This document shows, in pieces, positions 320-39,699 of a stretch of 39,699 nucleotides of DNA (the stretch's first letter is position 1; each line of letters begins with the position of its first letter). Made by a program: the position numbers and the translations under genes. The notes beneath the pieces are model-generated. The model did no database searches, had not been told where the DNA came from, and saw only the letters and a list, made by a program, of their open reading frames with translations. The stretch is from a virus (Duplodnaviria > Caudoviricetes). Location: positions 1 to 39,699 of IMG/VR virus record IMGVR_UViG_3300028072_000012, one strand, 5' to 3'.

Positions 320-393
320 GGGTGACGACTCAGCCGGTTGAAGAGGCGGTCCTGATAAGACCGTAGTGCAAGGTTCAACTCCTTGGTCACCTA
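320..393 (+). tRNA. tRNA-Ile(GAT)
   Basis: GGGTGAC/GTCACCT acceptor; CGGTC-CTGATAA-GACCG; CAAGG-TTCAACT-CCTTG. Confidence 0.88.
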
Positions 394-433
394 CGTGAAA
401 TTCAGTGCAGTTGATAAGGGAAGCAGGAGAAGC

Positions 434-649
434 ATGTCAGACTGGGAAACAACTCTTCTGGAGCCAGTCGTGGATAAGCCGGGTACTGAACTTGCAGTGA
501 TACCGAAGGAGCTGCCACGTGGACGCCATCGACGCCCAAAGCCTCCACGAGCTAGCGCAGCTCACCTTGCCGGAGCACGATACCGTGACCTGCTGGTGCT
601 GCTGTCTCGACTGCGACTTCAACTACCAGGAAGTCATGGCGGAAAGTAA
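434..649 (+). CDS. hypothetical protein (71 aa)
   Basis: ATG after AGGAG RBS; stop overlaps next ATG (TAATG). Confidence 0.55.
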   Translation: MSDWETTLLEPVVDKPGTELAVIPKELPRGRHRRPKPPRASAAHLAGARYRDLLVLLSRLRLQLPGSHGGK

Positions 650-813
650 TGCGCGCAGACGGCTCATGCAGTGAATGCGGGTGCACCTGGCCGCCCTGCG
701 CAGCCAAAGGGCATTGCGTCAGTCCGCTCATGTTCCGCTGGTGGATGATCCGGCATCCTCATGAGTACCGTAAGGCAAGAACGATAATCAGAGAGGGGTA
801 TGACAGTGAGTAA
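649..813 (+). CDS. small Cys-rich hypothetical protein (54 aa)
   Basis: Manual translation MRADGSCSECGCTWPPCAAKGHC...; coupled to upstream ORF. Confidence 0.5.
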   Translation: MRADGSCSECGCTWPPCAAKGHCVSPLMFRWWMIRHPHEYRKARTIIREGYDSE

Positions 814-832
814 ACACAGCGGGAAACTTCAT

Positions 833-906
833 GCCCCGCTAGCACAATCGGTCACTGCAGCGTCCTTTTAAGTCGCGGATTCCCGGTTCGAATCCGGGGC
901 GGGGCA
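833..906 (+). tRNA. tRNA-Lys(TTT)
   Basis: GCCCCGC/GCGGGGC acceptor; loop CTTTTAA; GGTTCGAATCC. Confidence 0.9.
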
Positions 907-925
907 CCCTTTATAATCCTCAACC

Positions 926-1060
926 ATGAATCCTCCCCAGCCGCCGCCTCCCCCGCAGCCGGATGACTGCCCGCGCTGCCAGGGAGCCGGTGCTGTCATC
1001 ATCAACGACAGGCCAGTTCAATGCCCCGCATGTCACGGCAGCGGGAAGAAAAACAAATAA
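926..1060 (+). CDS. DnaJ-type zinc-finger microprotein (44 aa)
   Basis: MNPPQPPPPPQPDDCPRCQGAGAVIINDRPVQCPACHGSGKKNK has two CxxCxGxG motifs; TATAAT at 912-917. Confidence 0.7.
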   Translation: MNPPQPPPPPQPDDCPRCQGAGAVIINDRPVQCPACHGSGKKNK

Positions 1061-1133
1061 GCATCACTAGCTCAAAGGATAGAGCGGCCGGCTTCTACCC
1101 GGCGGGTTAGGGGTTCGAGTCCTCTGTGATGCA
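1061..1133 (+). tRNA. tRNA-Arg(TCT)
   Basis: GCATCAC/GTGATGC; GCCGG-CTTCTAC-CCGGC; GTTCGAGTC. Confidence 0.92.
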
Positions 1134-1180
1134 CAGCATGCCCGTCCTTTTCCAGGGAGGTTGGGGGCGGGCATGCCCTA

Positions 1181-1252
1181 GGCCCCATCGTCTATGGGTT
1201 AGGATCGGAGGTTTTCACCCTCCGGAATGGAGTCCGAGTCTCCATGGGGTCA
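1181..1252 (+). tRNA. tRNA-Glu(TTC)
   Basis: GGCCCCA/TGGGGTC; GGAGG-TTTTCAC-CCTCC; T-loop variant TCCGAGT. Confidence 0.85.
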
Positions 1253-1253
1253 C

Positions 1254-1640
1254 ATGACACATATAAGAAACGACAAGACAGCCCGGGTCATCCCCGGGTT
1301 CAAGAAATCCGTTAACGAAAGCACCGGCGTCACGCACGTGTCCGCGTTCATGTGCCGGCACAGCGACAAGACCACCGCAGACGCCGACAGCGTACTGAAC
1401 GAGGCGAAAGAACAGCTCAGCGCAACCGACGCCACCCTGCTCAGCAAGGTGGTCTACCGGCTCAACTTCGAGTACGAAGCTGAGATCAGCAGCATCGCAT
1501 GCGACCAGTGGGCTATGGTCAGCGCGGAAACCTACGATCACAAGTTCAAGGTGACCGTCCAGTGCGACAGCGTGGAAGACGGCATCGCAGCAGTATGGAA
1601 GGCGTTCAAGGATCATGGTGCACCCGTCCCGGATGAGTGA
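1254..1640 (+). CDS. hypothetical protein
   Basis: ORF starting just after tRNA-Glu; overlaps next start; the ORF-track start at 1227 lies inside the tRNA. Confidence 0.7.
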   Translation: MTHIRNDKTARVIPGFKKSVNESTGVTHVSAFMCRHSDKTTADADSVLNEAKEQLSATDATLLSKVVYRLNFEYEAEISSIACDQWAMVSAETYDHKFKVTVQCDSVEDGIAAVWKAFKDHGAPVPDE

Positions 1641-1977
1641 CGAAGAGTACGTTAACTGGATCAACACCATGCCGGCAGCGGAGGAACGGATCAGCGCGGT
1701 CATGCGGGAATCCAGGTTCATCACCAGCTGGTTCCCGGCATACTCATCGGGGGCCGGGGACCTGATAGAGCAGATGCTGAAAGACCTGAAGAGGGAATGG
1801 CTCACCACGATCCGGAACTACCTGGAAGACCGGGAACTCCTCGCAGACAAGGATCTTCAGGAAAGCCTCCGGCAGATGCGTGACAGAATGTACGGTGCTG
1901 CCCTGGCATTCACTGAGCAGGAAGTCAGCGACGCTGCTGATGTCATGCGGTCAGCAGAAGACAGCGAGCCGGCATAG
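1633..1977 (+). CDS. hypothetical protein (helical)
   Basis: ATG overlaps the 3' end of the upstream ORF; protein-like composition. Confidence 0.7.
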   Translation: MSDEEYVNWINTMPAAEERISAVMRESRFITSWFPAYSSGAGDLIEQMLKDLKREWLTTIRNYLEDRELLADKDLQESLRQMRDRMYGAALAFTEQEVSDAADVMRSAEDSEPA

Positions 1978-2040
1978 CTTAGCGGTCAAAGCACCCCGCT
2001 CATAACGGGGAGACGCCTGGGTCAGCACCAGGTGCCGGTA
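1968..2040 (+). tRNA. tRNA-Met/Ile2(CAT), elongator type, atypical T-loop
   Basis: GCCGGCA/TGCCGGT; CCCCG-CTCATAA-CGGGG; CCTGG-GTCAGCA-CCAGG. Confidence 0.8.
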
Positions 2041-2055
2041 CGGAAAGGAAACCTG

Positions 2056-2241
2056 ATGGCATCGTGTGATCACGCGTGGGGTCCGTGGAACAGCTGGACC
2101 CAGACCTGCAACCAGTCACGCAGCCGTGTCTGCAATAAGTGCGGTGACTTCGACTACGACTACCAGACTGTGCATCAGTGGGGCACCTCTGAGGAAAATC
2201 CGAGGAAGATAACCTGCCAGCGCTGCGGTCAGTCCAGGTGA
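2056..2241 (+). CDS. small Cys-rich (CxxC) protein
   Basis: ATG after AAGGA RBS; CNKC and CQRC motifs, HxWG repeated. Confidence 0.65.
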   Translation: MASCDHAWGPWNSWTQTCNQSRSRVCNKCGDFDYDYQTVHQWGTSEENPRKITCQRCGQSR

Positions 2242-2245
2242 ACAC

Positions 2246-2319
2246 GGGCCAGTAACTCAGCTGGTAAGAGTGGCATCCTTATAAGGTGCTGGTCGTGCGT
2301 TCAAGCCGCACCTGGCCCA
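2246..2319 (+). tRNA. tRNA-Ile(TAT)
   Basis: GGGCCAG/CTGGCCC; GCATC-CTTATAA-GGTGC; GTGCG-TTCAAGC-CGCAC. Confidence 0.88.
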
Positions 2320-2333
2320 CTGAAGAAAGAAAG

Positions 2334-2699
2334 ATGATGAAGTTCAACATCGCACAGCTTGTGCACGGCAAGGACGGCAGCGCCGTCCTCATCGAAGAAG
2401 TTGCTCTCCGTGATTACCTGATGGAGTACGTGGTCGGTGACAACCTGTTCGGGTTGCTGAACTGGGTTCACCGGGACTGGATGTACAGTGTCCGCTGGGG
2501 ACCGGAAGATCCCGAGTTCGGGTTCGCGGAGAAGTCCCTCGGCGCGAAGCTGTTCAGCCTCGCCCAGTGGACCGCCGGCGGGTTCGGCGCGTACCGTAAG
2601 GCACGGCGGGTGGCGCAGTTCCCGGTGTCGTATGAGTGGGTGCGGGAGCACATGCCGGATGCCGGGTGGCCGTGGGACGGCACAGACGACAACGAATAA
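2334..2699 (+). CDS. hypothetical protein
   Basis: ATG after purine-rich RBS; GC3-rich codons. Confidence 0.7.
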   Translation: MMKFNIAQLVHGKDGSAVLIEEVALRDYLMEYVVGDNLFGLLNWVHRDWMYSVRWGPEDPEFGFAEKSLGAKLFSLAQWTAGGFGAYRKARRVAQFPVSYEWVREHMPDAGWPWDGTDDNE

Positions 2700-2703
2700 A
2701 AGG

Positions 2704-2731
2704 TTGACAACCAGCAGGATGCTGGTATGAT
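2704..2731 (+). promoter_or_regulatory. sigma70/SigA-type promoter
   Basis: TTGACA-16 nt-TATGAT with extended TG, upstream of tRNA-fMet. Confidence 0.75.
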
Positions 2732-2748
2732 TATGGGTGTAACAACGT

Positions 2749-2822
2749 AGCGGAGTAGAGCAGTTCGGTAGCTCGTCGGGCTCATAACCCGGAGGCCCCA
2801 GGTTCAAATCCTGGCTCCGCCA
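2749..2822 (+). tRNA. initiator tRNA-fMet(CAT)
   Basis: 1:72 mismatch (A:C), GGG/CCC anticodon stem, CTCATAA loop, GGTTCAAATCC. Confidence 0.9.
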
Positions 2823-2872
2823 CTAGGACTCCCGGGTAACCCATAGGGTGCCTACACCGGGAGTCCGATCAG

Positions 2873-2946
2873 TCTCCACTAGCTCAATTGGCAGATGCGT
2901 CCGGCTGTTAACCGGAAGGTTCCAGGTCCGAGTCCTGGGTGGAGAG
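2873..2946 (+). tRNA. tRNA-Asn(GTT)
   Basis: TCTCCAC/GTGGAGA; TCCGG-CTGTTAA-CCGGA. Confidence 0.9.
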
Positions 2947-3084
2947 CGGCAGCCGCTCACAGGTGAGTTGCCCTGGAACGTTTCCCCACCCCCTAGAAGG
3001 CGTTCCGTCCCTGTGTGCGCACTCCGAACTGCCCAGCGCCCGCCTGGCCGGCTGCCAGCGGGCACACAGATAGGATGCTGATAC

Positions 3085-3216
3085 ATGAAAGTGAAATGGC
3101 TGGTGATCGCGCTGATCGTGCTGTTCATCCTCATGGCACCTCAGGATGCAACGAACGCTGTGCACAGTCTCGTAAAGTTCTTCCAGGGAGTGTTCAGCGG
3201 AATGAACCTGCACTAA
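3085..3216 (+). CDS. small membrane protein (43 aa)
   Basis: MKVKWLVIALIVLFILMAPQDATNAVHSLVKFFQGVFSGMNLH, hydrophobic N-terminal helix. Confidence 0.55.
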   Translation: MKVKWLVIALIVLFILMAPQDATNAVHSLVKFFQGVFSGMNLH

Positions 3217-3224
3217 CAGACCAA

Positions 3225-3298
3225 GGTCCATTAGCTCAGTTGGTCAGAGCGCCGCCCTGTCACGGCGGAGGCCGCCGGTTCGAGCCCGGTATGGGCCG
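3225..3298 (+). tRNA. tRNA-Asp(GTC)
   Basis: CCGCC-CTGTCAC-GGCGG; canonical D and T arms. Confidence 0.93.
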
Positions 3299-3323
3299 CA
3301 AGTTCAGGTGATACGATGTCGCT

Positions 3324-3914
3324 ATGCCGATGCCGACACCGGAGCTGCAACGCGAGTATGCGCGTCAGTGGATGGCCGCCAGACGGGCGGCCTGGTTTGA
3401 AGGCAAAATCTGTGAAGAATGCGGGTCCACGAAGAATCTGGAACTAGATCACCGTGACCCGACGATGAAAGTAACGCACCGTGTCTGGTCATGGAGGAAG
3501 GAAAGACGAGAAGCGGAACTAGCAAAATGCCGGACACTATGCCAGGAATGCCACAAACTGAAGTCAGCTGGTGAGCACGCCAAAGGTTCACGTAATGGCT
3601 GCGCCAAGCTCACCGAAGAAGAAGCAAGACAAATAAGAGAATCGGTAGAACCTAGCCGGACGCTGAGCATTCGCTACGGAATCGGAATGCGCACAGTACA
3701 GCACATCCGGAAGGGCGATACTTGGTCACACATTGGGACGTTAGCACAACGGTCAGTGCACCACCCTGTCACGGTGGAAGGTGCCGGTTCGAATCCGACA
3801 CGTCTCGCGCAGAACAAGCTAGGCGGCGTAGCCTGCCCGTCTCCGGTAACCGGGCCTGATCTCCCTCGAAGTGCCGGGGATATGACCGCCGCACCCATAG
3901 AAGAGAGAAGATGA
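3324..3914 (+). CDS. HNH endonuclease with C-terminal HTH-like DNA-binding segment
   Basis: CEECGS-x-LELDH...CRTLCQECH motif, then KLTEEEARQIR...W-x-H; TACGAT 6 nt before ATG suggests leaderless mRNA. Confidence 0.85.
   Translation: MPMPTPELQREYARQWMAARRAAWFEGKICEECGSTKNLELDHRDPTMKVTHRVWSWRKERREAELAKCRTLCQECHKLKSAGEHAKGSRNGCAKLTEEEARQIRESVEPSRTLSIRYGIGMRTVQHIRKGDTWSHIGTLAQRSVHHPVTVEGAGSNPTRLAQNKLGGVACPSPVTGPDLPRSAGDMTAAPIEERR
3735..3807 (+). tRNA. tRNA-Asp(GTC), second copy, inside the HNH ORF
   Basis: GGGACGT/ACGTCTC; CCACC-CTGTCAC-GGTGG; GGTTCGAATCC. Confidence 0.85.
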
Positions 3915-4303
3915 TAACCGTGGGACCCTCAGGGCCGGCACCCTTCCAGCCCCTGTCCAGCTTTGCCGCGCACCCGCTGTCGTTCGACAGCCTGATGCTC
4001 ACCCATGAGGATCTCGCTGACATCATCGCCGGGATGAACGAACTGGAACTTTCCAGGTTCATGGAAATACTCGCGCTCAAGCTCGGCGCATCCAGTGACA
4101 CCCTGATGCTGCGACTGGAAGATCCCGGGGACAAGAAGATCGCGGTGATCAAGGAGATCCGTGACGCAACCGGCGTCAAGCTGATCGACGCGAAAAACAT
4201 GACGAACAGTGCACCTGTGAACATCCTGGCCGGTCCTGCCTGGCGGGTACGAGACGTGGCCGCACGACTGCGCCAGGCAGGCGCAACAGTTACAGTGAAC
4301 TAA
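3911..4303 (+). CDS. rplL: ribosomal protein bL12 (L7/L12) homolog
   Basis: C-terminal GDKKIAVIKEIRDATGVKLIDAKNM..AP..I....A..L..AGATV; N-terminal LTHEDLADIIAGMNELELS resembles the dimerisation helix; start may be 3995. Confidence 0.85.
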   Translation: MITVGPSGPAPFQPLSSFAAHPLSFDSLMLTHEDLADIIAGMNELELSRFMEILALKLGASSDTLMLRLEDPGDKKIAVIKEIRDATGVKLIDAKNMTNSAPVNILAGPAWRVRDVAARLRQAGATVTVN

Positions 4304-4310
4304 CTATCAC

Positions 4311-4382
4311 GGGCGTGTAGCTCAGCGGGAGAGCAGCTGCATGACGCGCAGAAGATCCCAGGTTCAATCCCTGGTACGCCCA
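4311..4382 (+). tRNA. tRNA-Val(GAC)
   Basis: GGGCGTG/TACGCCC; CTGC-ATGACGC-GCAG; GGTTCAATCC. Confidence 0.87.
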
Positions 4383-4442
4383 CAGGACCGGCATAACAGC
4401 CGCAGGTCCACACCTTTATCCTGGTGTGCCGGTCCCGCCAAC

Positions 4443-4517
4443 GGCCTTGCAGAGCAGCCTGGAGTGCTCGTCTGCCTCTCAAGCAGGAGATCGCCGGTTC
4501 GAATCCGGTCAAGGCTA
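4443..4517 (+). tRNA. tRNA-Glu(CTC)
   Basis: GGCCTTG/CAAGGCT; loop CTCTCAA; GGTTCGAATCC. Confidence 0.9.
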
Positions 4518-4621
4518 CGCGTCAGTCCGGGAAAAGAGAGGCAGCAGCCCTGCCGTTGCCTGCACGGCGGTCGCAAAGCAGGACAACCTGAGAGGTTCCC
4601 CGGTCAGCCGTCTCAGGACCA

Positions 4622-4694
4622 GCGCCCATAGCTCAGCGGATAGAGCAGCGGCCTACGGAGCCGCGTGTCGGGAGTTCAAGTCTCTCTGGGCGTA
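4622..4694 (+). tRNA. tRNA-Arg(ACG)
   Basis: GCGCCCA/TGGGCGT; GCGGC-CTACGGA-GCCGC. Confidence 0.92.
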
Positions 4695-4710
4695 CGTGAA
4701 AGAGGAAAGA

Positions 4711-5226
4711 ATGAGGATCAGCCCCGGTGATCTCGGCTGGATGGCAGCCATCATCGACGCTAAAGGCGCAGTCATCCGGAAACACAACGCCAAACGGAGA
4801 ACACCGCAGATCGTTCTCCGGGTGGACACCAAAGACCGTCGCATCGCCCGCCGGCTGAGTCTCCTCACCGGCACCAGCCCGGAAATCAAGGAAGCCATGG
4901 GCCCGTCGGACTTCCTCCGCCGTGGCTGCAAGGAACACTGCCCGGAATCCCACATCCACGTCGATCAGGAACCCTCCTGGCAGATGCCCGAAACCACCAG
5001 GTGGGCCATCACCGGCGCAGCCGCAGCAGTGATCCTCATGAACCTCGCCCCGTACATGATCACCTACCAGGATTACGAAGGTGACGTGAACCTGGCACTG
5101 ATGAACCTGGTCACCTCCGGGCAAGGTTCCGGCATGGTCCGATCGTCAGTGAACCGTCTCGCTGATCTCGGCTGGCAGATCCCCCGGAAAATAGAACTGA
5201 AACTCAGATTGACGAGCACCCCATGA
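4711..5226 (+). CDS. LAGLIDADG-like protein (possibly degenerate homing endonuclease)
   Basis: N-terminal DLGWMAAIIDAKGAV resembles the LAGLIDADG helix; ATG after GAGGAAAG. Confidence 0.6.
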   Translation: MRISPGDLGWMAAIIDAKGAVIRKHNAKRRTPQIVLRVDTKDRRIARRLSLLTGTSPEIKEAMGPSDFLRRGCKEHCPESHIHVDQEPSWQMPETTRWAITGAAAAVILMNLAPYMITYQDYEGDVNLALMNLVTSGQGSGMVRSSVNRLADLGWQIPRKIELKLRLTSTP

Positions 5227-5441
5227 CAACATGGAGAGACATCCTCCCCGAGGATGCGATACACATCGACTGCCGGGAACACCCCGAACTTGACCCGCCC
5301 CAGAATGAGGCAGGCGAACCATGCCCATGGCCGTGGGACCCCCAGCAGCTTGCCGGGGCACCCCTCGGGCAGTATCATTGCGGGTTCTGCGGTGCGATGG
5401 TCGTCGCGGGACTCCCCCACATCGACTACAGAGACGAGTAA
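5223..5441 (+). CDS. hypothetical zinc-binding protein
   Basis: ATGA overlap; YHCGFCG motif. Confidence 0.7.
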   Translation: MTTWRDILPEDAIHIDCREHPELDPPQNEAGEPCPWPWDPQQLAGAPLGQYHCGFCGAMVVAGLPHIDYRDE

Positions 5442-5447
5442 CACTAA

Positions 5448-5521
5448 GGCCGGTTAGCTCAACCTGGCGGAGCAACGCTTTCACACAGCGGAGGTTCAGA
5501 GTTCAAATCTCTGGCCGGCCA
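5448..5521 (+). tRNA. tRNA-Val(CAC)
   Basis: GGCCGGT/GCCGGCC; CGCT-TTCACAC-AGCG; CAGAG-TTCAAAT-CTCTG. Confidence 0.87.
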
Positions 5522-5675
5522 CGCGTAGTAGAGGTACTGTCACTGTAACTGTCGCACCACTGGGGTACCTCCGGGGCGATCCCGGGGGACGTGATGAACG
5601 CACCAATCCCCCTAGGCTAGAACTGGAACAGGCCAGCGGTCCACCCGTCCCCCCGACGGGAATCTGCTGGCGCAT

Positions 5676-5750
5676 GGCGGATATAGCTCAATGGGAGAGC
5701 GCTGGACTGTGGCTCCAGACATACGAGTTCGATCCTCGTTATTCGCCCCA
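5676..5750 (+). tRNA. tRNA-His(GTG) with G-1 and encoded CCA
   Basis: CTGGA-CTGTGGC-TCCAG; G-1:C73; ends CCCA. Confidence 0.92.
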
Positions 5751-5761
5751 AGTATTGACTA

Positions 5762-5841
5762 GCCAGAGTTGAGCAATCGGTCGCTCAGCGCCCTGTAAAG
5801 GCGTGGCTTCGGCAGTGGGGGTTCGAATCCCTCCTCTGGCA
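5762..5841 (+). tRNA. tRNA-Tyr(GTA)
   Basis: GCCAGAG/CTCTGGC; loop CTGTAAA; variable arm; GGTTCGAATCC. Confidence 0.9.
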
Positions 5842-5842
5842 C

Positions 5843-6079
5843 GTGGGTAAATACGCAACCCGCAATGGCGGGTATCAGATAGTAACCGTCCCTCTAGAAT
5901 TGCCGGAAGTGCCTGGTAGCCCCGGCGGCGTAGTTGAACGTTCCCTTGACGCCGGGTTCTATGCGGCGGTGTACATAAATCAGGGCAGTAGTGCTCCGAT
6001 AGGTGTCGGATACGGAGAAACTGAAACCGCCGCTGTCCGCGCAGCACTCAGCAACGCCGACGTGCGCTTCCAGGGATGA
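5843..6079 (+). CDS. hypothetical protein
   Basis: ORF filling the gap after tRNA-Tyr; start uncertain. Confidence 0.45.
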   Translation: MGKYATRNGGYQIVTVPLELPEVPGSPGGVVERSLDAGFYAAVYINQGSSAPIGVGYGETETAAVRAALSNADVRFQG

Positions 6080-6145
6080 ACTGCGTCGCGTATGCTACCC
6101 AGGTTCAAGTCCTGGTCCCGGCACAAAAAGAAAAGGAGAAACACA

Positions 6146-6334
6146 ATGAAGACAGCAGCAGTCATCCTCATGACCATCGGTCTCGCAGGACTGTTCCTCC
6201 TCGGCTACGCCTGGATGACCAGTGACAGCTCCTTCGAACCCCGCAAGCCCGCCGACAAGCCGAAAATCCGCCGTCGGGTAACAGCCATGCTGATGCTCTG
6301 CGTAATGACCGGCGCAGCATATGCAGGAGCCTGA
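6146..6334 (+). CDS. small membrane protein
   Basis: AAGGAG RBS; two hydrophobic segments. Confidence 0.7.
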   Translation: MKTAAVILMTIGLAGLFLLGYAWMTSDSSFEPRKPADKPKIRRRVTAMLMLCVMTGAAYAGA

Positions 6335-6482
6335 CAACATAGACGACCTGATCAACGCCTGGCACAATGGTGCTGGCGGTAACCAGGAACTCTGGCAGTA
6401 CCTCGGCTGGACCTGGAAACAGTACAAAACATGGGTAGAGACCGGGAAAATCTCTCCAGTAGAAATCAGTAAAGAACAGTAG
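6321..6482 (+). CDS. hypothetical phage protein (53 aa)
   Basis: Manual translation MQEPDNIDDLINAWHNG...LWQYLGWTWKQYKTWVETG; fills the gap between flanking ORFs. Confidence 0.65.
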   Translation: MQEPDNIDDLINAWHNGAGGNQELWQYLGWTWKQYKTWVETGKISPVEISKEQ

Positions 6483-6501
6483 AGAGTAAAGGAGGGGGAC
6501 A

Positions 6502-6843
6502 ATGATCACCATCACCCGGGCGGTACAGACCTGCATGGCCTGCCCCTCCCAATGGAACCTGTGGAGCGACAACGGCGACTACTACTACGCCCGCTACCGG
6601 CACGGCTGCGGTGAACTCCGCCAATACAAAACCGAACACTGGTACCACAAAGACGAAGACGAATTCATCGCCGACATCGCCGAGTTCTACCACGGCGACC
6701 CGCTCGACGGCATGATCAGCCTGGAAGAATTCGCGCAGCTCGCCGGCATCACCATCGCCCCCGACGCCATGATCACCGGATACGGGGACCATCTCCGCGA
6801 TGAGATGATCACCAGCGGGTTCACCGGACTGCTCGATGAGTAA
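6502..6843 (+). CDS. hypothetical phage protein
   Basis: AAGGAGG RBS; TCxACPSQW...YARYRHG motif. Confidence 0.8.
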   Translation: MITITRAVQTCMACPSQWNLWSDNGDYYYARYRHGCGELRQYKTEHWYHKDEDEFIADIAEFYHGDPLDGMISLEEFAQLAGITIAPDAMITGYGDHLRDEMITSGFTGLLDE

Positions 6844-7039
6844 CTGGGCATACGCGAGTACCCGACGAGGCACGGTGATCATCATGAATGAAGATGAGCG
6901 TGTCCTGTTCGAAGACTTCATCAGCACTGACAGTCTTCTGGCATCAGCGGAAATAGCGTTCGCGTCAGCCGGCTGGACCCGTCAGGGTGACTGGGAACAG
7001 CTTGCCAGCGGATGGCAGACTGAAGTAAAGCGCACCTGA
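6836..7039 (+). CDS. hypothetical protein
   Basis: Overlapping start with upstream ORF. Confidence 0.6.
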   Translation: MSNWAYASTRRGTVIIMNEDERVLFEDFISTDSLLASAEIAFASAGWTRQGDWEQLASGWQTEVKRT

Positions 7040-7048
7040 CGGCCTGTT

Positions 7049-7121
7049 GCTTCCGAAGTAGACCGGACGATACGCCAGCCTCCGGAGCTGGAGACAGCAG
7101 GTTCGACTCCTGCCGGGAGCA
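7049..7121 (+). tRNA. tRNA-Arg(CCG)
   Basis: GCTTCCG/CGGGAGC; CCAGC-CTCCGGA-GCTGG; GCAGG-TTCGACT-CCTGC. Confidence 0.87.
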
Positions 7122-7145
7122 CCCACAAGAAAAGAGAAGAGAGAA

Positions 7146-7511
7146 ATGAAACGCATCACCGGCGCGATCATCGCAGCCGCCATAGCATGCCTGGCCATGG
7201 CCGGCTGCTCCACCACCAACCATGACAGCGGCAACCCCACCTACGACATCGTGCTCCACTGGTGGCGCGTCGAAACACCCCCGTCAGTCGTGACCGAGTT
7301 CTTCGCCTGCTTCGACACCACCGGCCTGTGGCTCGACCAGGCTGACGGCAACATCTCCACCACCCCAAACGACCCTATGTGCCCCAAGAACGGCCAGCCG
7401 TACAGACTAGTCAAGAGAAGCGGCACGGACCCCGCAGTCGACGTTGGCGGGTTCCGTATCGTCCCCCCTGACAAGACCGGCCTTTACCAGACAGTCAACG
7501 GAAGAGTCTGA
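7146..7511 (+). CDS. lipoprotein
   Basis: MKR + hydrophobic helix + lipobox (LAMAG-C). Confidence 0.8.
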   Translation: MKRITGAIIAAAIACLAMAGCSTTNHDSGNPTYDIVLHWWRVETPPSVVTEFFACFDTTGLWLDQADGNISTTPNDPMCPKNGQPYRLVKRSGTDPAVDVGGFRIVPPDKTGLYQTVNGRV

Positions 7512-7635
7512 GGAGACAGATGAGAGCACCGCACGATATCCTCTGTGATAAAAAGTGCCGCTGCCGGGCCTGCCTGGACGGCAACTGCTCAATGTGCGCC
7601 CACGGAGGCCACTAACCTTGCCTGACACGATCCCG

Positions 7636-7764
7636 ATGACCTGCCTGCACTGCGGAAGCCCCAAGCTCAAGGTGCACTGCCCTAACGTGCAGTGCACCTG
7701 GCTGCGATGCGACGCATGCGGCAAGCTGACCCGGGTACAGGACATCCCTGCCCCCGGAACATGA
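7636..7764 (+). CDS. zinc-finger microprotein
   Basis: CLHC, CPNVQC and CDAC in 42 aa; start uncertain. Confidence 0.5.
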   Translation: MTCLHCGSPKLKVHCPNVQCTWLRCDACGKLTRVQDIPAPGT

Positions 7765-7834
7765 CGGTATGGCCGAGAGGCTCAGGCGCACGCCTGCAAA
7801 GCGTGATACACCAGTTCGATTCTGGTTACCGTCT
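7763..7834 (+). tRNA. tRNA-Cys(GCA)
   Basis: GACGGTA/TACCGTC; CACGC-CTGCAAA-GCGTG; U73. Confidence 0.92.
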
Positions 7835-7908
7835 CGGAGCCCCCGCCACCCGGACATCCTCCACCCCGTTTAAGGGATGTGCCGTTGCGAGGCGGGGGCT
7901 TCCCCTAT

Positions 7909-7977
7909 GCTCCTGATACCGGATGTATTCCGGCTCCTCCTAAGAGCTGGTCCCAGGTCCGACTCCTGGCAGGAGCA
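7909..7977 (+). tRNA. tRNA-Arg(CCT), short atypical D-arm
   Basis: GCTCCTG/CAGGAGC; GCTC-CTCCTAA-GAGC; CCAGG-TCCGACT-CCTGG. Confidence 0.72.
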
Positions 7978-8001
7978 CCCCCGCTAGCGTTGACGAAAGA
8001 C

Positions 8002-8030
8002 TTGACGTTGACGTATGGCGGGTATATAAT
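8002..8030 (+). promoter_or_regulatory. near-consensus sigma70/SigA promoter of the RAMP-like operon
   Basis: TTGACG(8002-8007)-17 nt-TATAAT(8025-8030); extra TTGACG copies at 7990 and 8008. Confidence 0.85.
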
Positions 8031-8084
8031 TATGCCTGAACGGAACACGAGAACATAACCTCGAACCCGATGAAAGAAGGAACA

Positions 8085-8813
8085 ATGACAACCACCGCCC
8101 GCACAGCGGCGGCCCGCCCCGGACCCGACAACCCGGTCAACCCGATCCTTGTCGTCTCCCGCATCCCCACCACCACGATGTACGTGCCCATCATCGGCAC
8201 ATCACCCCTCATCGTGAGCAAGTTCAGCACCAAAGCCAAGCAGCAGATGCTTGACGCCCAGCAGGGACGCAAGTCCCCCAAGAAGCTCCGCGACCCCGAG
8301 CGCGAGTACCTCGACAGCATGTACACCGGCCTTGACGGCACCGGCAAGCAGCTCTACGGCTTCCCCGTCACCGGCTTCAAGGCAGCCACCGTGTCCGCCG
8401 CCCGCTTCTACGGCAAGGACGTCAAGATGACCGAGCTGCGCCAGTTCATCTTCATGAAGGGCCGCTTCTTCCCCGAGGAAGGCCAGCAGCTCGCCGTGGT
8501 CAACGGAACCCCGCACATCCGCGAGGACTACGTGCGCCTCGCCGGCGCAGGCCGCCCCGCTGACCTCCGCTACCGTGCCGAGTTCACCGACTGGAGCACA
8601 GTCCTGGAAGTCACCTACGTCAGCTCACTGCTGTCGAAGGAATCCGTCCTGTCCCTCATCGACGCCGGCGGTTTCGGTGTCGGCGTAGGCGAATGGCGTC
8701 CCGAGCACCGGGGCGAGTTCGGCACCTACACCATCGATGAGAGCCGCGACTCCGAGCAGGCCAAGGCGTGGATCGACGCACTGGAAGCCGCCGACAAGGT
8801 GACCGTCAAGTGA
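8085..8813 (+). CDS. stand-alone RAMP/Cas7-like RNA-binding protein (putative effector of the GGY-NN arrays)
   Basis: RAMP-like motifs in order: IIGTSPLIV, YGFPVTGFKAA, thumb-like REDYVRL...LRYRAEF, C-terminal Gly-rich loop AGGFGVGVGEWRPEHRGEFGTY; AAGGA RBS. Confidence 0.75.
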   Translation: MTTTARTAAARPGPDNPVNPILVVSRIPTTTMYVPIIGTSPLIVSKFSTKAKQQMLDAQQGRKSPKKLRDPEREYLDSMYTGLDGTGKQLYGFPVTGFKAATVSAARFYGKDVKMTELRQFIFMKGRFFPEEGQQLAVVNGTPHIREDYVRLAGAGRPADLRYRAEFTDWSTVLEVTYVSSLLSKESVLSLIDAGGFGVGVGEWRPEHRGEFGTYTIDESRDSEQAKAWIDALEAADKVTVK

Positions 8814-9265
8814 GCGAGCCCACCGAGAAGATCAGCAACCTTCGCGATGAGCTGCTGCGGATCAGGGCAGAGTACGGCGAGCTGACGGCGGAGACGATCG
8901 TCGCCGCAGCCACCTCCGAGTCCAGCGCGATCCATAGTCAGTTCGAGTGGGATGACTCGGAAGCAGCCCACCAGTACCGTCTCAACCAGGCGCGGCGGCT
9001 GGTCAAGATCGTCAAGGAGCCGTATGTGCGGCCGACTGGCGAGCAGGGCAAGGTCCGGTTTTTCCACGCGACCCAGGACGACAATCGGACGGTTTACAAC
9101 CCTTTGTCCGAAATCGTTCAGGACCCGATCGCCTCGCAAATCCTGCTGAGGCAGGCGGAGCGCGAGTGGCGGGCACTGTGGGCAAGATACCAGCACCTGT
9201 CCGAATTCGTGGACATCGTGCGGGGTGTCGTCCAGGTGACTGAGCCGACCGATGAGGCCGACTAA
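8810..9265 (+). CDS. phage protein coupled to the RAMP-like gene (putative accessory factor)
   Basis: GTGA start/stop overlap; motif IHSQFEWDDSEAAHQYRLNQARRLV. Confidence 0.8.
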   Translation: MSEPTEKISNLRDELLRIRAEYGELTAETIVAAATSESSAIHSQFEWDDSEAAHQYRLNQARRLVKIVKEPYVRPTGEQGKVRFFHATQDDNRTVYNPLSEIVQDPIASQILLRQAEREWRALWARYQHLSEFVDIVRGVVQVTEPTDEAD

Positions 9266-9283
9266 GTCAAGTAGATCAGAGAG

Positions 9284-9313
9284 GAGGGGGATGACCTTCA
9301 GGTTGTCCCCCTC
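9284..9313 (+). other. hairpin leader upstream of array 1
   Basis: GAGGGGGATGACC-TTCA-GGTTGTCCCCCTC, 13-bp stem with 2 G:U pairs. Confidence 0.8.
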
Positions 9314-9323
9314 TCATCTCTCA

Positions 9324-10272
9324 GGTACGGCAGGTACGGCTCGGCGTGATAGCGCGGGGTCTGGCTAGGTACGGCGTGGTCGGGTCCGGTTCGGTTCGGC
9401 AGGTGTGGTAACGCTGGGTGAGGTCAGTCAGGGTAAGTCAAGGTACGGCAGGTAAGGCAAGGATTGGCCCGGAGGGTTCAGGTCAGGCACGGCAGGTCAG
9501 GTGCGGCTGGGCATGGTGCGGCTGGGCGCGGCAAGGTCCGGTACGGCAGGTAAGGCTGGGCAAGGTCAGTCAGGGTAGGTCAAGGTACGGCAGGTGAAGC
9601 AAGGCGAGGTATGGAAGGGTAATGCGAGGTCTGGTCCGGCAGGTTAGGCTCGGCAGGGTGTGGTCAGGACAGGTCGGGTACGGCAGGTGCGGCTCGGACA
9701 GGTCTGGCAAGGTGCGGCTAGGTGTGGCGTGGCAGGTAAGGCGGGGCGGGTTTTCGCGTGGTAGTGCATGGTTAGGTGCGGCAGGTCAGGCAAGGCGGTG
9801 CGGGGTATCGCTTGGCAGGGCAGGGCAGGCATGGTGCGGTTACGCAGGGTACGGCGCGGCATGGCAGGCAAGGCAAGGCCCGGTTCGGTCGGGTGAGGTC
9901 CGGCAACGCAGGCGTGGTTTCGTCGGGTTCGGCAGGTCTGGCACGGCATGGTGAGGTGCGGTACGGCGTCGTACGGTCTGGCTGGGTACGGCAGGTGAGG
10001 CGTGGCATCGTGACGTCAGGAATGGCTTCGCACGGCAGGTGAGGCTTGTCCAGGAATGGTCAGGAATGGTTAGGCGCGGCAGGCACGGTACGGCGCGGCA
10101 CAGTACGGCAGGGCACGGCAGGGCAGGCAAGGCACGGCTTGGACTGGTTTCGCAAGTTGATGTCCGGCAACGCAGGTATGGCTTCGTTAGGTCCGGCACA
10201 GTAATGCTGGGTTTGGCATGGCAGGCACGGCATGGCTCGGTGAGGCCGGGTATGGTCACGTACGGCCGGTAA
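9324..10272 (+). repeat. Array 1: 20 units of (GGY-NN)4-13 + GGCA delimiter; putative guide-RNA array
   Basis: Manual parse 9333-10267: 171 pentamers in perfect phase; unit lengths 69,49,44,54,44,49,44,49,49,44,39,44,24,59,44,44,44,49,49,44 (all 5n+4). Confidence 0.95.
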
Positions 10273-10275
10273 AAC

Positions 10276-10317
10276 AGAAGAGGCTCGTCCCCCTCTCCAC
10301 GGGGACGAGCCTCTTCT
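10276..10317. terminator. probable bidirectional terminator
   Basis: Perfect 17-bp inverted repeat AGAAGAGGCTCGTCCCC/GGGGACGAGCCTCTTCT between the convergent array and lysis genes. Confidence 0.85.
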
Positions 10318-10330
10318 TGTGCAGGGGGAA

Positions 10331-10681
10331 TTACGCAGGCCGGACACCCGCCGACGGGCTCACGTTCGCCCGGAAAACCAGTCCCAAGACACCAGACAGG
10401 ATAGCAGCACCGGCACCGATCTCCGCCGCACTCAGATGCAACCCGAACGCAGCAGCAGCAACCGCGATAGTCGACACCCCGCCCACCAGCACCGACACCT
10501 CAACCGGCTTCGTAGTAACAGCAGTGAAAATCACCGTCACAGCCGTCAGAACAGTCGTGACAGCGGCTTCCTGAGTGCTCGAAATGTGAAACACATTCCC
10601 GAGGAGAACAGCCAGCCCCCCGTTCAGAGCCCACGCCAGAATAGCTGGCTCATAACGCCACAGTTTCTCAATAAAGGACAT
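10331..10681 (-). CDS. holin-like membrane protein
   Basis: About 4 hydrophobic helices, EPA motif, last gene of the lysis cassette, AAGGAG RBS. Confidence 0.7.
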   Translation of the reverse strand: MSFIEKLWRYEPAILAWALNGGLAVLLGNVFHISSTQEAAVTTVLTAVTVIFTAVTTKPVEVSVLVGGVSTIAVAAAAFGLHLSAAEIGAGAAILSGVLGLVFRANVSPSAGVRPA

Positions 10682-10690
10682 GACATCTCC

Positions 10691-11431
10691 TTATGATGTC
10701 AGAGCGCCCAGGTCAGCCTGCAAGGCAGCCAGGTTAATACCACGGCCATCATCACCCTTAGACACAATCTCACCGGGAATGACAGCCCATGCCTCATCCG
10801 AGATGTAATGCCAGCACGCATAAGTAATCGGCTGGACCTTCCCCCAGGTGATGCAGTAAAGATACTTAGAGTCGTACCCAACTACTGGAACGCAGTGCCC
10901 GCCCACAGTCTGGGAGAACAAGTCGTCCAGGTCCCATGAATCACCCTTGGCGTACGCCTGCTGCATAGCAGCCGTCACCTTGATGCCGGTGTACGCGAAA
11001 TCATAGGCGTCCACCGCAAAATGCAGTGTCGGGATGTCATGCACGGCCACCGGCGCGTAAGCAGCAACGGAATGACCAAAAAAACCATTCTGATGAACGT
11101 AACCTAGGAAATCGGAAAGGACAACGCCAGTGTCCTGCCCGCCGGTGTACCCCAAGTAATACTGGACGACCTCATCGGATGACGGGAAAGACTCAGTTTC
11201 GCCGGTTACCGATGCGGCAACCATGAATCCGTGATCAATTCCCGCGACACCGCAGTCACCGTAACTGTCATTCCCGAGCATTCCCCACGGGGTGCCGTCC
11301 GACTGCGCCGGCACTACGGGAACGTCCACTTTCGGCGGGGCCTGCGGGAGAGTGCCGGCCCGGTAAAAATCAAGGAAGCGCAGGCCGACCGGGATACTCC
11401 CCGGGAGCCTTCCGAACTTCAGGTCAGGCAC
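10691..11431 (-). CDS. papain-like (C1 clan) cysteine peptidase
   Basis: GNDSYGDC (Cys) ... GGHCVPVVGYD ... ITWG pattern. Confidence 0.7.
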   Translation of the reverse strand: MPDLKFGRLPGSIPVGLRFLDFYRAGTLPQAPPKVDVPVVPAQSDGTPWGMLGNDSYGDCGVAGIDHGFMVAASVTGETESFPSSDEVVQYYLGYTGGQDTGVVLSDFLGYVHQNGFFGHSVAAYAPVAVHDIPTLHFAVDAYDFAYTGIKVTAAMQQAYAKGDSWDLDDLFSQTVGGHCVPVVGYDSKYLYCITWGKVQPITYACWHYISDEAWAVIPGEIVSKGDDGRGINLAALQADLGALTS

Positions 11432-11464
11432 ACATCTCCTTGCTGTAGAATGTCAATGCAACTA

Positions 11465-11542
11465 GGTACGGTGACGCAGGTATGGCATGGCAAGTTCCGT
11501 CCAGGCACGGCTAGGTGCGGTAGGGTGTGGCCGGTTCGGTGG
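11465..11542 (+). repeat. Array 2: single orphan GGY-NN unit (10 pentamers)
   Basis: GGTAC GGTGA CGCA, 10 pentamers at 11479-11528, then GGCC; intergenic, antisense to lysis genes. Confidence 0.85.
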
Positions 11543-11709
11543 ATGCGCGATGCAGATGGATAAGAAACGCTGTCAGCATCGCGCATTCCAGCCAGCGATG
11601 TCTCCGACAGATACGCGAGATAGTCGGAGTTCGCCTAGTACCCAGAGCGAACACTTCATAGCTGCAGCCAGCCGCGACGGCAATTTTGAATGCCCCCTCA
11701 GCTGTCACA

Positions 11710-12729
11710 CTAAGCCGTCTCGAATTTGACGCTTGCGTAAGTGTGCGGCCGGATCTGCGTCCCGTGAGGACCAGACGCGACCACATGAGCGATAAAAGCT
11801 TTGCCCTGCTCCAGGGAACCGCCCTGGAAAGAAGTCGCAACGACTTTCCTGGGATAGGACGACACCATTTTCCCGGTCGTCTCATCGTAAATTTCCACGA
11901 TGTACTCCGCCGGGGCAGGCAGCCCCTCGGTTCCCGGCGGCTTCCAGCTCAGCAGCACGCTCGTGTGCCCGCCTCGTGCCCTGAGGTTCGTAGGCGGCCC
12001 ATACGTAGGATCTGACGGAGGCTGAACCGCCAGATCCTGCCACAGCACCTCGTCCACGACGGGTGCTACAGGCAGGCCCAGGAGCTGCTGAGCCATCGTC
12101 ACCGCAATGGACGTCTTCGGCCCCCAATCTCCGTCCGGGACCAGCGCAGGACCGATATGCCAGGCGTTGATCCTCTGCTGCAAAGTCAGCACCGCAGGAC
12201 CCGTGTCACCCGGGAACACCGGCCATGGCGGGGAGAAGAAATCATCATTCAGGATCGACTGGTCAAGGTTCCTGCCCAGTGCTGTGCTCGTCCATTGCGT
12301 GCCGTCCGCGTTAACGCTCATCAGCCCGCAAGAATGCGGCCCGCAGATATGCTGCCCCTGCCCGTAATGGGCGCTCCACAAGCGCACCTCACCCCGGGGG
12401 AACCCGGCTTCCTTGAGAATCGGCAAAATGTCAGATTCCATCACGCTCGCGGACGCATACAGGCACGGGCGGGGTATGCCCCGTGCTTTCTGCCGGGCAT
12501 ACCAGGCGGCAGCTGACTGGGGAGTCGCCGCGCCGTTCTCAATGTCCAAGCAGTACGCATCATGAGCAGGGTTCAGTGCGATCGACAGATGATAAGCATG
12601 AGTGAAATTGTTCACCAGCCACTGAAAGTTCGGCTGATCCTGAATGCCGCCGTCAACATAGCCGGCGACAGCCTGGGCGTTGCCGGGGAACTCGCTGTTC
12701 GTTGCCGAGTCGAACATGATGATGCTCAT
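11710..12729 (-). CDS. endolysin (GH25/DUF1906-like glycosidase + peptidoglycan-binding + FN3-like)
   Basis: CLDIENG, PCLYAS, LWSAHY, QWTS..LDQS; GDTGPAVLTLQQRIN..DGDWGPKT binding domain. Confidence 0.8.
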   Translation of the reverse strand: MSIIMFDSATNSEFPGNAQAVAGYVDGGIQDQPNFQWLVNNFTHAYHLSIALNPAHDAYCLDIENGAATPQSAAAWYARQKARGIPRPCLYASASVMESDILPILKEAGFPRGEVRLWSAHYGQGQHICGPHSCGLMSVNADGTQWTSTALGRNLDQSILNDDFFSPPWPVFPGDTGPAVLTLQQRINAWHIGPALVPDGDWGPKTSIAVTMAQQLLGLPVAPVVDEVLWQDLAVQPPSDPTYGPPTNLRARGGHTSVLLSWKPPGTEGLPAPAEYIVEIYDETTGKMVSSYPRKVVATSFQGGSLEQGKAFIAHVVASGPHGTQIRPHTYASVKFETA

Positions 12730-19063: not shown

Positions 19064-22000
19064 TTACCAGCTCAGGGACTGAGTGCCCGGCGTGTTCTGC
19101 CCCGACTGATCCGCGATCAGCGCCTGGTTTTCCGGGTAAACCGGGGAAATCTGGTACTTCGTCGTCCACTGTGACGGGCCGATATCATGCTGGATTTCCT
19201 GGATTGCCCCTGTCACGCTGAGAACTGCCCCGCCCACCGGACGGCGGTTCACCGTGACTGTCTGGTTCAGTTCCAGCCCGAGAATTGTCGGGAACAGCGT
19301 CGGGAACTTGCCCTGCCCCGCAGCCACGTTAATGGACAGCACCTGACTGCGCTGCACCGGCTGCTGGTACTTCGCAACCGACCAGTTCACCACGTCATTG
19401 ACGTCAAACGGGGTCAGCGCGAACGACTGGATTTCCAGCCCGGACCTGTTGAAGTAATTCGTCTGGCTGGTATGGTCTGCCACCTGATAGAAAAATGTCT
19501 GGTCCGGGCCACGGTTCTGCGTCGCGTTCACCGTGTTGTAGATGAACGAGTTGTCCACGGAGAACGTGGAATCCTGCATGAGCGGCAGTTCCGTTGTCCC
19601 GTTGTCCCCGAATGTGGCAACCACCGGCTGGTTGTACCGCGCCCAGCGGATGACATAGACAAGACTGCCGTTCGCCTGGGTGAAACAGCGTCCGCCTTCC
19701 GTCTGCGTAAGCTGCTGCATGACATCCGCGCCAGTGCTGCCCTCATAGGAGTACGCCTCAGACATGAACGTGTTCTCAACGGTCCCGTAAGTGCCGTACC
19801 AGGCGGTACCGCCCCGCTTCAGGCCCAGCAGCCCCCATGTGAGCACCTGCGCGAACCTGCCCGGCGCGGGAATGTACCCTGACCCGTAGAACCCGGACGC
19901 GAAATGGTTGCTGATCTGCGCTGGGGTCAGCTCATACGGGTAGATGGCAAGATGCCCGGCCGCGAAGTTGAAACCGTTGTAAACGCACAGGTCAGACACG
20001 TCATAGGAGAACCGGGCGGGTCCCAGGGTGATCGCGCGGATCAGCGGGTGCGTCGCGATCCCGTTGCTGACCCCCACCCCCACCCCGTTCAGGTAACAGG
20101 ACAGCGACTGCGCGTACAGGCCAGTCGGCCCGGACACCAGCACGAAATGCTGCGGTGCGAACGTGTTCTGATTGAAGTGGAGCGCCGCGCCGATCTCCGT
20201 GCCGTTAACGTACAGGCCGGTTGCCTTGGCTGTGTTCGACCCGGTGTTGATCCCGACGGTGATCACCCCGCCGACCGTGCCGATCTGCGGGGCAGCCGCG
20301 AAGAAACTGGACGGTCCCGCCCACGCGTTCAGCAGCGTGGTAGACGCCAGTGTCGTACCGCCCCAGGTGAACCAGAACTCCAGTGTCATCCCGGTTGTGT
20401 TCGTCGGGATGTTCGGATCGAAGTAGAACATGCCGGGACCGTTAGTGTTGGTTTCCGGGGCAATGTACGTTGAGGCACCCATCACCGTGTCACTGTCGCC
20501 CAGCAGGTTCAGCGCCTGCCCTGTCGTCGCCGGCTGGTCACTGCCGTCCCGGTACGCGCCGACCCGGTTGTTGCCCGGAGCCTTGTTCACCGCGATCAGC
20601 CCGTTAGCGTCAAGCGGGGCCTTGATCGGGTCCAGCGACTGGGTGGTGAAACTGTACTGCTCATCCGTCGCGAAGTACGCGTACGGGGAATCTTTCCGGA
20701 TGTCCCCTTCCACGGCGGAAGACAGGGAGGTGCTCGCCAGCGGCCCGTAGGCGTCCGTGGCGACCAGCGTGGAGAATCCCCACTGCGGCATGTCCGGCCA
20801 TTCCTGCGGCCACCGTTCCACGTACCCGAACGCGACCGGGTACTGGGTGCCGTTCCACCAGGCTGTCACCCGCACCGGCACGTTCGGGACAACGCAGTTA
20901 GTTGACACCAGGTTCGATCCGTTCAGGATCGCGCACTCATCTACGTAGAAGACAGTGGCAGCGGAAGGCAGGCCGGACAGCTTGGCGTCCACCCGGGCGA
21001 AGACAGCTGTTGACGGGGCCTGGGTGTTCACCAGCGTAACCTGCGTCCACACGCCGGCCGGGACGGACTTGCTGGCAGAAGTCGTGGAAATGAAAACCTG
21101 GCTGGCGTTGTACCAGTCAACGGAAACCTGTGTTGTGCTCCACCCGAGCGGGATGTACACCCAGAATGAGGCGGTGACGATCCCGCTGTTCAGCCGGATC
21201 AGCTGCGAGCTGATGAACGGGTTGCTCGTCACCCCGTCCGGGGTCACCTGCATGGAAGTCGTGCCGCTGTGCGCGAACGCGGTTGACGGTGCCATGACGG
21301 AGTTGTTGTTCGCCGTCCACCCGGTGGTGCCCAGCCCGAAGCTCATGTTCGGGTTCAGCGCGTTGCTCCAGTACGGGCTCGCAGTATTGCCGTACGTGAA
21401 CGCGCCGTCATGATTGTCCAGGGTGAGGGTCAGCTCCCCGGTTTCCTCCTGGGAAATCTCGTACTGCCGGCCACGGGTGATCTTGATGCGTCCCTGGCCC
21501 TTGTCCCCGATGACCCGCGTGGAAATGTCCGTCCACGTCAGCCCTGTGATGTCCCAGGTGTAGTCAACGCTTTGCGTCCAGTCTCCCGGCGTGGCCCCGA
21601 ACGCGGCCTCCACCGTGACCAGGGGATAGTTCGGGTTCGTCTGAAGCGGTGCCGCCGCAGTCAGCTTCAGGCCCACGATAAGACCCGACGCCGGCACTGT
21701 GTTCGCCCATGTAGGAGCGAACGGGACACCCCCGGCGGCATTGTTCGGGATGTACATCGAATAGGTGGTGGCCTGCGCGGACAGCGCCCCGCCCGCCGCC
21801 GCGATCCCCGACCAGCCGGACGGCACCGTCAGCGCACCGCCGCCGCCGCCCGTGGAAAGCACCCCGAACACAAGGTCGCTTGTCGTGGCTGTCCCCGCAG
21901 GGATCGTCAGGGCGGCAACCCCCGCCGTGGATACCGTGGTCTGCACGAAGTCGATCACCGGCGTACCGAAGCTGCCCGGCAGGTTGTGGACTTCAGCGAT

Positions 22001-36927: not shown

Positions 36928-37000
36928 GGTACGGCAGGTTTGGCATGGCTGGGTTCGATAAGGTTGGGCGAGGTCGGGTGCTGTCAGGTAAGGCAGGTTC
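36928..37000 (+). repeat. Array 3: single orphan GGY-NN unit (11 pentamers)
   Basis: GGTAC GGCA, 11 pentamers at 36937-36991, then GGCA GGTTC; intergenic, antisense to structural genes. Confidence 0.9.
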
Positions 37001-39448: not shown

Positions 39449-39699
39449 GGTACGGCAGGTAAGGCGAGGCAGGGTCTGTTATGGCTGGGTTCGGCAGGTA
39501 AGGTGTGGCACGGCTTGGCTTGGTACGGCAATGCAGGTTAGGTGAGGTCTGGCCTGGTGCGGTTCTGCATCGTATGGTCGGGCAGGTATGGCGCGGATCG
39601 GCATGTCACCGCAAGGTGTGGTTTGGCAGGTATGGCACGTCACGGCACGGCACAGCATGGTGTGGCACGGCAGGTTAGGCCGGGCGAGGTGAGGCGGGG
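39449..39699 (+). repeat. Array 4: GGY-NN array, 5 complete units plus 1 truncated by the window end
   Basis: GGTAC GGCA start; units of 39,39,49,44,44 nt from 39458, delimiters GGCA/TGCA. Confidence 0.93.

Follow-up and report, generated by a model that had tools for sequence, protein, structure and literature searches.

A staggered VIPR locus in a phage genome, with end guides that partially match adjoining genes

What do a small RAMP-like gene, a coupled partner gene and a long run of GGY-NN pentamers do together in a tailed phage? The question is raised by positions 8,002 to 10,317 of the IMG/VR virus record IMGVR_UViG_3300028072_000012, whose positions 1 to 39,699 were analysed as a whole and are called the window here. 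The locus is very probably a phage VIPR system in which the array is likely cut, unit by unit, into single guides; these would bring a filament of Vipr protein onto double-stranded DNA and likely silence genes of competing, often related, phages. VIPR is a CRISPR-related family published in 2026 (10.64898/2026.04.26.720920); the first-pass annotation of this sequence had pointed to it correctly. The accessible parts of the VIPR preprints establish a GGY/NN guide read with a one-nucleotide (1-nt) skip, binding of double-stranded DNA by a filament, and repression (10.64898/2026.04.26.720920, 10.64898/2026.04.26.720927, 10.64898/2026.10.15.759431, 10.64898/2026.10.21.760802), as well as solo guides and guides directed against the vipr genes or the vrRNA of relatives (10.64898/2026.04.26.720920, 10.64898/2026.10.15.759431). 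“Staggered” vrRNA arrays, in which neighbouring guides share one base, the last of one being the first of the next, are described in one of them (10.64898/2026.04.26.720920, fig. S18 legend), whose text and legends name no junction motif, processing route or targets for such arrays and whose small-RNA data cover the ribozyme and single-guide types only. Publications thus cover the VIPR family, its code and the staggered layout already; what is added here is that staggered units decode under the 1-nt skip, together with a neighbour-facing rule for the guides at the ends of arrays.

The predicted product of the gene at 8085-8813 is, by its sequence and modelled structure, a Vipr RAMP whose RRM core, thumb and G-loop are homologous to those of the described Vipr. 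Its sole sequence match in the PDB is the Vipr of phage SUSP1 (36pp_D, E 1e-4), with which hhalign aligns it at a probability of 95.6. The top Foldseek matches of its structure model (pLDDT 87) are Csm3, type VII Cas7 and Cas7-11 (E 1e-5), in a library that is older than the Vipr structure entries. The Cas7/RAMP-like character proposed at first pass is borne out by these fold matches together with the match to SUSP1 Vipr. The 242-amino-acid protein has no Pfam match and its PHROG is unnamed. In an alignment of 159 sequences, SUSP1 residues R138, D177, W178, R179, K82 and R39 fall on R164, E203, W204, R205, R107 and K66 of the window protein, while SUSP1 K33 has no clean counterpart. The available part of the SUSP1 cryo-electron microscopy work places one protomer on each 5-nt step, the protein holding the GGY and the NN pairing with a one-base skip (10.64898/2026.04.26.720927); by analogy, the window protein would be arranged as the first-pass annotation had supposed, with one subunit per GGY-NN step, the GGY held and the NN pairs spelling a non-contiguous target. 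With the class 1 CRISPR RAMPs named above the protein has in common the RRM/RAMP fold, the thumb and the glycine loop, but those systems pair contiguously and are fed by a repeat-spacer array, whereas pairing here is gapped and the window has neither an array of repeats nor cas1/2/3/5/6/10. Homologs occur in the cultured Gordonia phages Pipp, UmaThurman, Ecliptus and ODay (53-57%) and in Mycobacterium smegmatis phages (about 42%), all of which offer tractable models for the clade.

The main array (9324-10272), beside vipr, consists of 173 pentamers, 134/173 of them GGY-NN, with the GGY held and the NN variable. Pairs of GGY at a lag of 5 number 101, against 9.4 +/- 2.9 (maximum 21) in 500 dinucleotide shuffles. 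The run is interrupted by 21 four-base steps (18 GGCA, two CGCA and one GGCC), and the succession of GGCA and a new pentamer fits the staggered architecture: judged by the wording of the published legend, the GGCA-GGY step is such a one-base overlap, and the two-gene phage locus (vipr and vap) and the GGY/NN pentamers are likewise common to both. Over its four arrays the window holds 27 full units; the 20 of the main array range from 24 to 69 nt rather than the 39-69 nt given at first pass, and the shortest (9911-9934) has only 4 NN. Units abut directly and carry no conserved structured 3′ tail of ~40 nt. The locus is by its sequence a VIPR member that does not belong to type II, in which the guides of SUSP1 and P. 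fulva each bear a ~40-nt pseudoknot tail. The type II system of Escherichia phage SUSP1 (PDB 36pp) shares with the window a homologous Vipr, the thumb and G-loop residues and the code; it differs in its accessory protein Vap1, to which the window partner has no detectable relation, in having four guides where the window has 20 in one run, and in its Escherichia host, that of the window being probably actinobacterial. The array is a test case for how tail-less staggered arrays become guides, and 20 guides joined by a 4-base junction would make a compact natural multiplexing device for a repressor of ~240 amino acids.

Some units resemble one another. Units 2 (9402-9450) and 5 (9549-9592) agree at 14/16 read bases and units 9 (9735-9783) and 10 (9784-9827) at 11/14, and in each pair the two guides are likely, from these sequence agreements, to be duplicates directed at variants of a single target. 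A 194-nt wastewater contig (run X24, possibly RNA) matches 9544-9721, which spans units 5-7 and the greater part of unit 8, with a single difference, but the GGY-NN unit that it carries upstream of the GGCA junction is another one; this one contig hints at the exchange of whole units at that junction. A low-depth contig from run X18 joins window positions 9344 and 10034 across 38 further nucleotides of repeat-like sequence and departs from the window inside unit 17. It suggests a relative with different array content, although its shorter side measures only 21 nt.

Related loci bear on the claim, made at first pass, that each GGCA-delimited unit is one guide. From the 202 loci collected, 184 were kept after removal of duplicates, and GGY-NN arrays were found in 166/184 by a parser that missed at least one degenerate array (L017); homologs and arrays co-occur, as the first-pass annotation had supposed. 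Among the 1827 off-register (non-5) steps in the 184 loci, 1349 are GGCA. A homolog of the partner is encoded in 150 of the first 177 loci, and the array may stand before, between or after the vipr and partner genes. A guide was defined as a unit between two 4-base steps and was dropped if it had fewer than 7 or more than 15 pairs, less than 60% GGY or fewer than 5 different NN. When the resulting 737 guides were compared with 199 kb of vipr/vap genes, a margin of at least 3 over the best of 20 shuffles was obtained with skip 1 only. The best skip-1 matches (26/28, 23/26 and 19/20 read bases) all belong to first units; they lie in wobble phase, and both orientations are represented among them. 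Since these margins arise with skip 1 alone and on both strands, a unit between GGCA steps behaves, at the level of sequence decoding, as one guide under the published 1-nt-skip rule, and its predicted target is double-stranded. The rule thereby holds for the clade; the window itself contributes partial matches to its own adjoining genes only.

Variation of the array design is seen in several of these loci. L017, the closest relative in IMG/VR (72%), has at 11050-11690 a more degenerate array, with GGCA followed by GTC instead of GGY, beside a DNA polymerase-like gene; the junctions of L006 and L007 are GGCC-GTC. Arrays can reach 2-4 kb, as in L036 (10678-14655, with 122 four-base steps), L007 (5303-7868) and L001 (5905-8160).

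The position of a unit in its array is related to what it matches. Under skip 1, a match to the 700 nt upstream of the own array is seen for 10/130 first units and for 3/667 middle units (p 2e-6). Downstream matches occur for 6/107 last units (middle units 8/622, p 0.01) and for 5/18 solo guides (p 1e-5). Skips of 0, 2 or 3 give 0/130 each for first units upstream and at most 2/107 for last units downstream. The pattern holds when the window is left out and a stricter cut-off applied (6/119 against 0/598 for first units, 5/102 against 4/565 for last units, 3/14 for solo guides). These self matches reach 68-89% identity of read bases; the skip lies on the wobble base in 15/22 of them (p 9e-4), and 12 are to the coding and 10 to the template strand. 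The like gene of another locus is matched better than the own copy in 6/22. The neighbour-facing effect is real, but concerns fewer than 1/10 of the end guides, and the related loci are not fully independent. It is relevant to two questions: how guides originate and are passed on when there is no acquisition enzyme, and whether VIPR serves to restrain itself or to compete with kin. The last unit of one locus (L106) faces a gene whose peptide presumably resembles the N-terminus of YqaJ.

The window shows the same tendency at two places. Of the 26 bases read by unit 1 (9333-9401), 20 agree with its own vap gene at 9077-9114 (p 0.005 for the whole window). At residues where the window phage has N and I, unit 1 spells S and V: two close relatives of the partner (P0123 and P0125) have both of these, and some others have one. 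The solo guide at 11479-11532 matches the 3′ end of its own endolysin gene at 16/20, and a weak likeness (15/22) links the solo guide 36937 to its flank at 37019-37050. Beyond the adjoining genes, exact or near-exact scans covered 4/27 guides, units 2/5 and 12 were searched with shorter patterns, and the other 20 guides were compared with the window (all of them) and with the 1.9 Mb of collected loci (17 of them), where nothing beyond chance was found. The units 2/5 pattern has 13 matches, four of which are related contigs of 43% GC with a wobble-phase match in a YqaJ recombinase; this is about 1 in 8 independent matches and stands at chance level. Read in sense, units 2/5 resemble the C-terminal part of YqaJ. 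Unit 12 has three shorter-pattern matches, all out of phase. No evidence was found in these searches for host defence genes as targets.

The mechanism that we favour borrows several steps from SUSP1. The array would be transcribed and its pentamer runs coated by Vipr, one subunit per step; a 4-nt step would break the 5-nt register of the filament, so that the RNA could be trimmed into single tail-less guides. The filament would then bind double-stranded DNA by the two-read, one-skip code that decoding supports, presumably as an R-loop triplex, and would block transcription without cutting, in line with SUSP1 and with the absence of a visible nuclease. Rival phages, kin included, are the likely targets: in sibling phages, the vap gene would be the target of unit 1 and the endolysin gene that of the solo guide. 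With the own adjoining copy mismatched, a guide and the resistant allele could travel together in recombination, linking weapon and immunity. On a bolder and tentative interpretation, for which we would claim less than an even chance, staggered VIPR cassettes would be RNA-guided, nuclease-free allele drives: end and solo guides would aim at the adjoining gene as siblings write it, the own copy being mismatched, so that, when phages infect together, the rival region with its vipr-vap and lysis genes could be silenced and then replaced by the cassette with its resistant flanks. Guide exchange would proceed by whole modules at the GGCA junction and need no Cas1. A literature search found no paper on VIPR as a gene drive, and the available part of 10.64898/2026.10.15.759431 has no mention of homing, autoregulation or staggered arrays; its supplementary tables, which stood outside the comparison, may bear on neighbour-facing guides.

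Several results weigh against silencing of rival phages. None of the scans listed above revealed an outside target of a window guide; skip-1 outliers that stand out from shuffles come from the comparison with the vipr/vap genes of related loci. Exact scans of IMG/VR with unit 1, unit 9 and solo guide 11479 had no match, nor had an exact GTDB scan with unit 14 or a scan of 401 Actinomycetota genomes with unit 1 at 3 mismatches, and the shorter-pattern matches are at chance level. With all 1.9 Mb of loci as the target set, the skip-1 excess is only slight. For 16/22 neighbour matches, no better-matching like gene exists among the collected loci, and 7/22 reach at least 80% on self, the target cut-off applied in the VIPR preprints; this fits self-regulation too. 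At the residue that unit 1 spells as G, the nine close partner proteins all have N, and no relative spells unit 1 fully. The endolysin match of the solo guide has on its own a p of 0.02 among 27 guides tested, and two endolysin relatives keep R where this guide spells K/N, with no better fit at the mismatched residues. In the protein alignment, SUSP1 H17 falls on S45.

The near-matches to adjoining own genes could instead be deliberate partial self-targeting, in which unit 1 caps expression of vipr-vap and the solo guide slows endolysin transcription and delays lysis. The seven matches at or above the 80% cut-off speak for it, among them that of locus L048, which is best on itself (16/18); so does the failure of the scans to give unit 1 or the solo guide a better match elsewhere. 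The solo guide matches the endolysin gene without a gap over its seven 3′-most NN pairs, and according to the accessible part of the structural study (10.64898/2026.04.26.720927) it is from the 3′ end that R-loops of SUSP1 extend. Relatives, where collected, nevertheless often match better than self (26 against 20 of 28, 23 against 18 of 26, 19 against 15 of 20). Unit 1 has a full mismatch against its own vap at the third pair from the 3′ end, and its footprint holds the rare codon TTG, found nowhere else among the 28 Leu codons of vipr and vap. Published vrRNA-targeting guides also score lower on self than on rivals, as stated in the available part of 10.64898/2026.10.15.759431. On balance we regard self-targeting as unlikely, yet as a fair rival.

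Somewhat less likely still is that most guides silence host genes such as regulators, defence or methylase genes. The peptides read in antisense are TNPPF-like for unit 9 and FGSR-like for unit 12, which may resemble a methylase and a TetR motif, respectively; but unit 12 has at one mismatch 2 matches in five actinobacterial genomes against 1 for the reversed control, the GTDB scan with unit 14 was empty, and every strong match lies in phage or VIPR genes, in a target set that is mostly phage DNA. That the complex pairs with mRNA as a minimal type III effector, or that the array is a decayed CRISPR or plain tandem repeat, we hold to be very improbable. The closest solved folds are indeed of the RNA-targeting Csm3 and type VII Cas7 (with the older library noted above), and the correlation of pooled NN composition with codon positions 1-2 is higher in antisense (r 0.57 against 0.21). 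An RNA target with coding-strand bias was dropped, since matches fall on both strands, 10/22 of them pairing with the template strand, and only 10/27 window guides lean antisense. Against this whole group of readings stand also the lack of direct repeats and Cas genes in the window, the conserved GGY beside variable NN and the fact that skip 1 alone decodes.

The layout of the locus is given in Table 1. The compact unit described at first pass is present in all its elements, a promoter-like site, the RAMP gene, the coupled partner, a hairpin, the 20-unit array and a terminator-like hairpin, while a single transcript running across the hairpin at 9278 is a prediction only; the three additional arrays were likewise correctly noted. 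In 7500-12000 the promoter-like site occurs only once, but shuffles give 0.9 such sites, so it is its position and not its count that is evidence for 8002-8030. Hairpin 9278-9321 is possibly an attenuator or a 5′ protecting stem. Three copies of TTGAC stand within about 25 nt in the promoter region (7990-8015), and its reverse complement GTCAA is found shortly before the arrays 9324, 11465 and 36928; these may be operator sites or chance occurrences.

Table 1. Coordinates of the VIPR locus, the additional arrays and the guide footprints in the window.
Feature	Position	Strand	Basis or remark
Promoter-like site, sigma-70-type, TTGACG-17-TATAAT	8002..8030	+	Consensus match only, 11/12
vipr gene, 242-aa RAMP (Vipr); thumb arginine R164, G-loop E203-W204-R205	8085..8813	+	Sequence, fold, residue alignment
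vap partner gene, 151 aa, GTG start, 4-nt overlap with vipr	8810..9265	+	Open reading frame; weakly winged-helix-like N-terminal domain and long C-terminal helix
Footprint in own vap of array unit 1, 20/26, 1-nt skip on wobble	9077..9114	+	Guide match
19-bp hairpin between vap and array	9278..9321	+	z -4.2
9-nt leader, one pentamer + GGCA; also opens arrays 36928 and 39449	9324..9332	+	Array parse
20 staggered guide units, 24-69 nt, 4-13 NN pairs each, 4-nt GGCA steps between	9333..10267	+	Array parse
17-bp terminator-like hairpin between array and converging holin gene	10276..10317	.	z -6.2; 0/200 shuffles as stable
Solo array, one full guide 11479-11532 (10 NN), antisense to lysis genes; then strong hairpin ~11542-11587 (z -3.9)	11465..11542	+	
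Footprint at 3′ end of own endolysin gene (11710-12729, minus), 16/20 match to solo guide, skip on wobble	11729..11757	-	
Solo array, one guide 36937-36995 (11 NN); then strong hairpin 36997-37043 (z -8.3)	36928..37000	+	
Fourth array, five full units; sixth truncated at window end	39449..39697	+	

The partner protein is less informative. It has no Pfam or PADLOC family and its PHROG is unnamed; its Atlas clusters are unnamed too and mostly viral. The fold matches are weak (best Z 5.9, under the reliability level of the tool), although this best match leaves room for the view that the modelled partner and SUSP1 Vap1 may share a winged-helix ancestry; there is no detectable likeness between the two in sequence or profile. 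No nuclease motif that we recognised stands in its conserved columns, and we infer that it is a DNA-binding helper.

The window is part of the genome of a tailed phage, with a tape measure gene, lysis genes and 19 tRNA calls; the phage occurs in soil metagenomes, and the Atlas points to Actinomycetota as the probable host. No relative of the window endolysin was found in cultured phages. The locus is letter-for-letter identical in three other records, one of which is probably the window's own contig, and an identical Vipr protein is also encoded on a 134-kb contig; the 39.7 kb analysed make up about 30% of the genome. PADLOC found no Cas gene among the 47 other open reading frames and both locus genes, nor was a direct repeat or repeat-spacer array detected; given the larger genome, this absence, which agrees with the first-pass statement that cas1, cas2, cas3, cas5 and cas6 are missing, holds for the window only. 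An Rfam scan of the window returned tRNAs only and no ribozyme. Further genes include, inside the block of virion genes, a group I glycosyltransferase (31555-32691) and, on the minus strand (19064-26407), a 2447-aa protein of unknown function. Directly upstream of the vipr promoter lies a tRNA cluster (320-7980) of 19 gene calls, 15 of which pass Rfam, with an HNH gene (3324-3914) that gave the one weak HNH/REase match in PADLOC.

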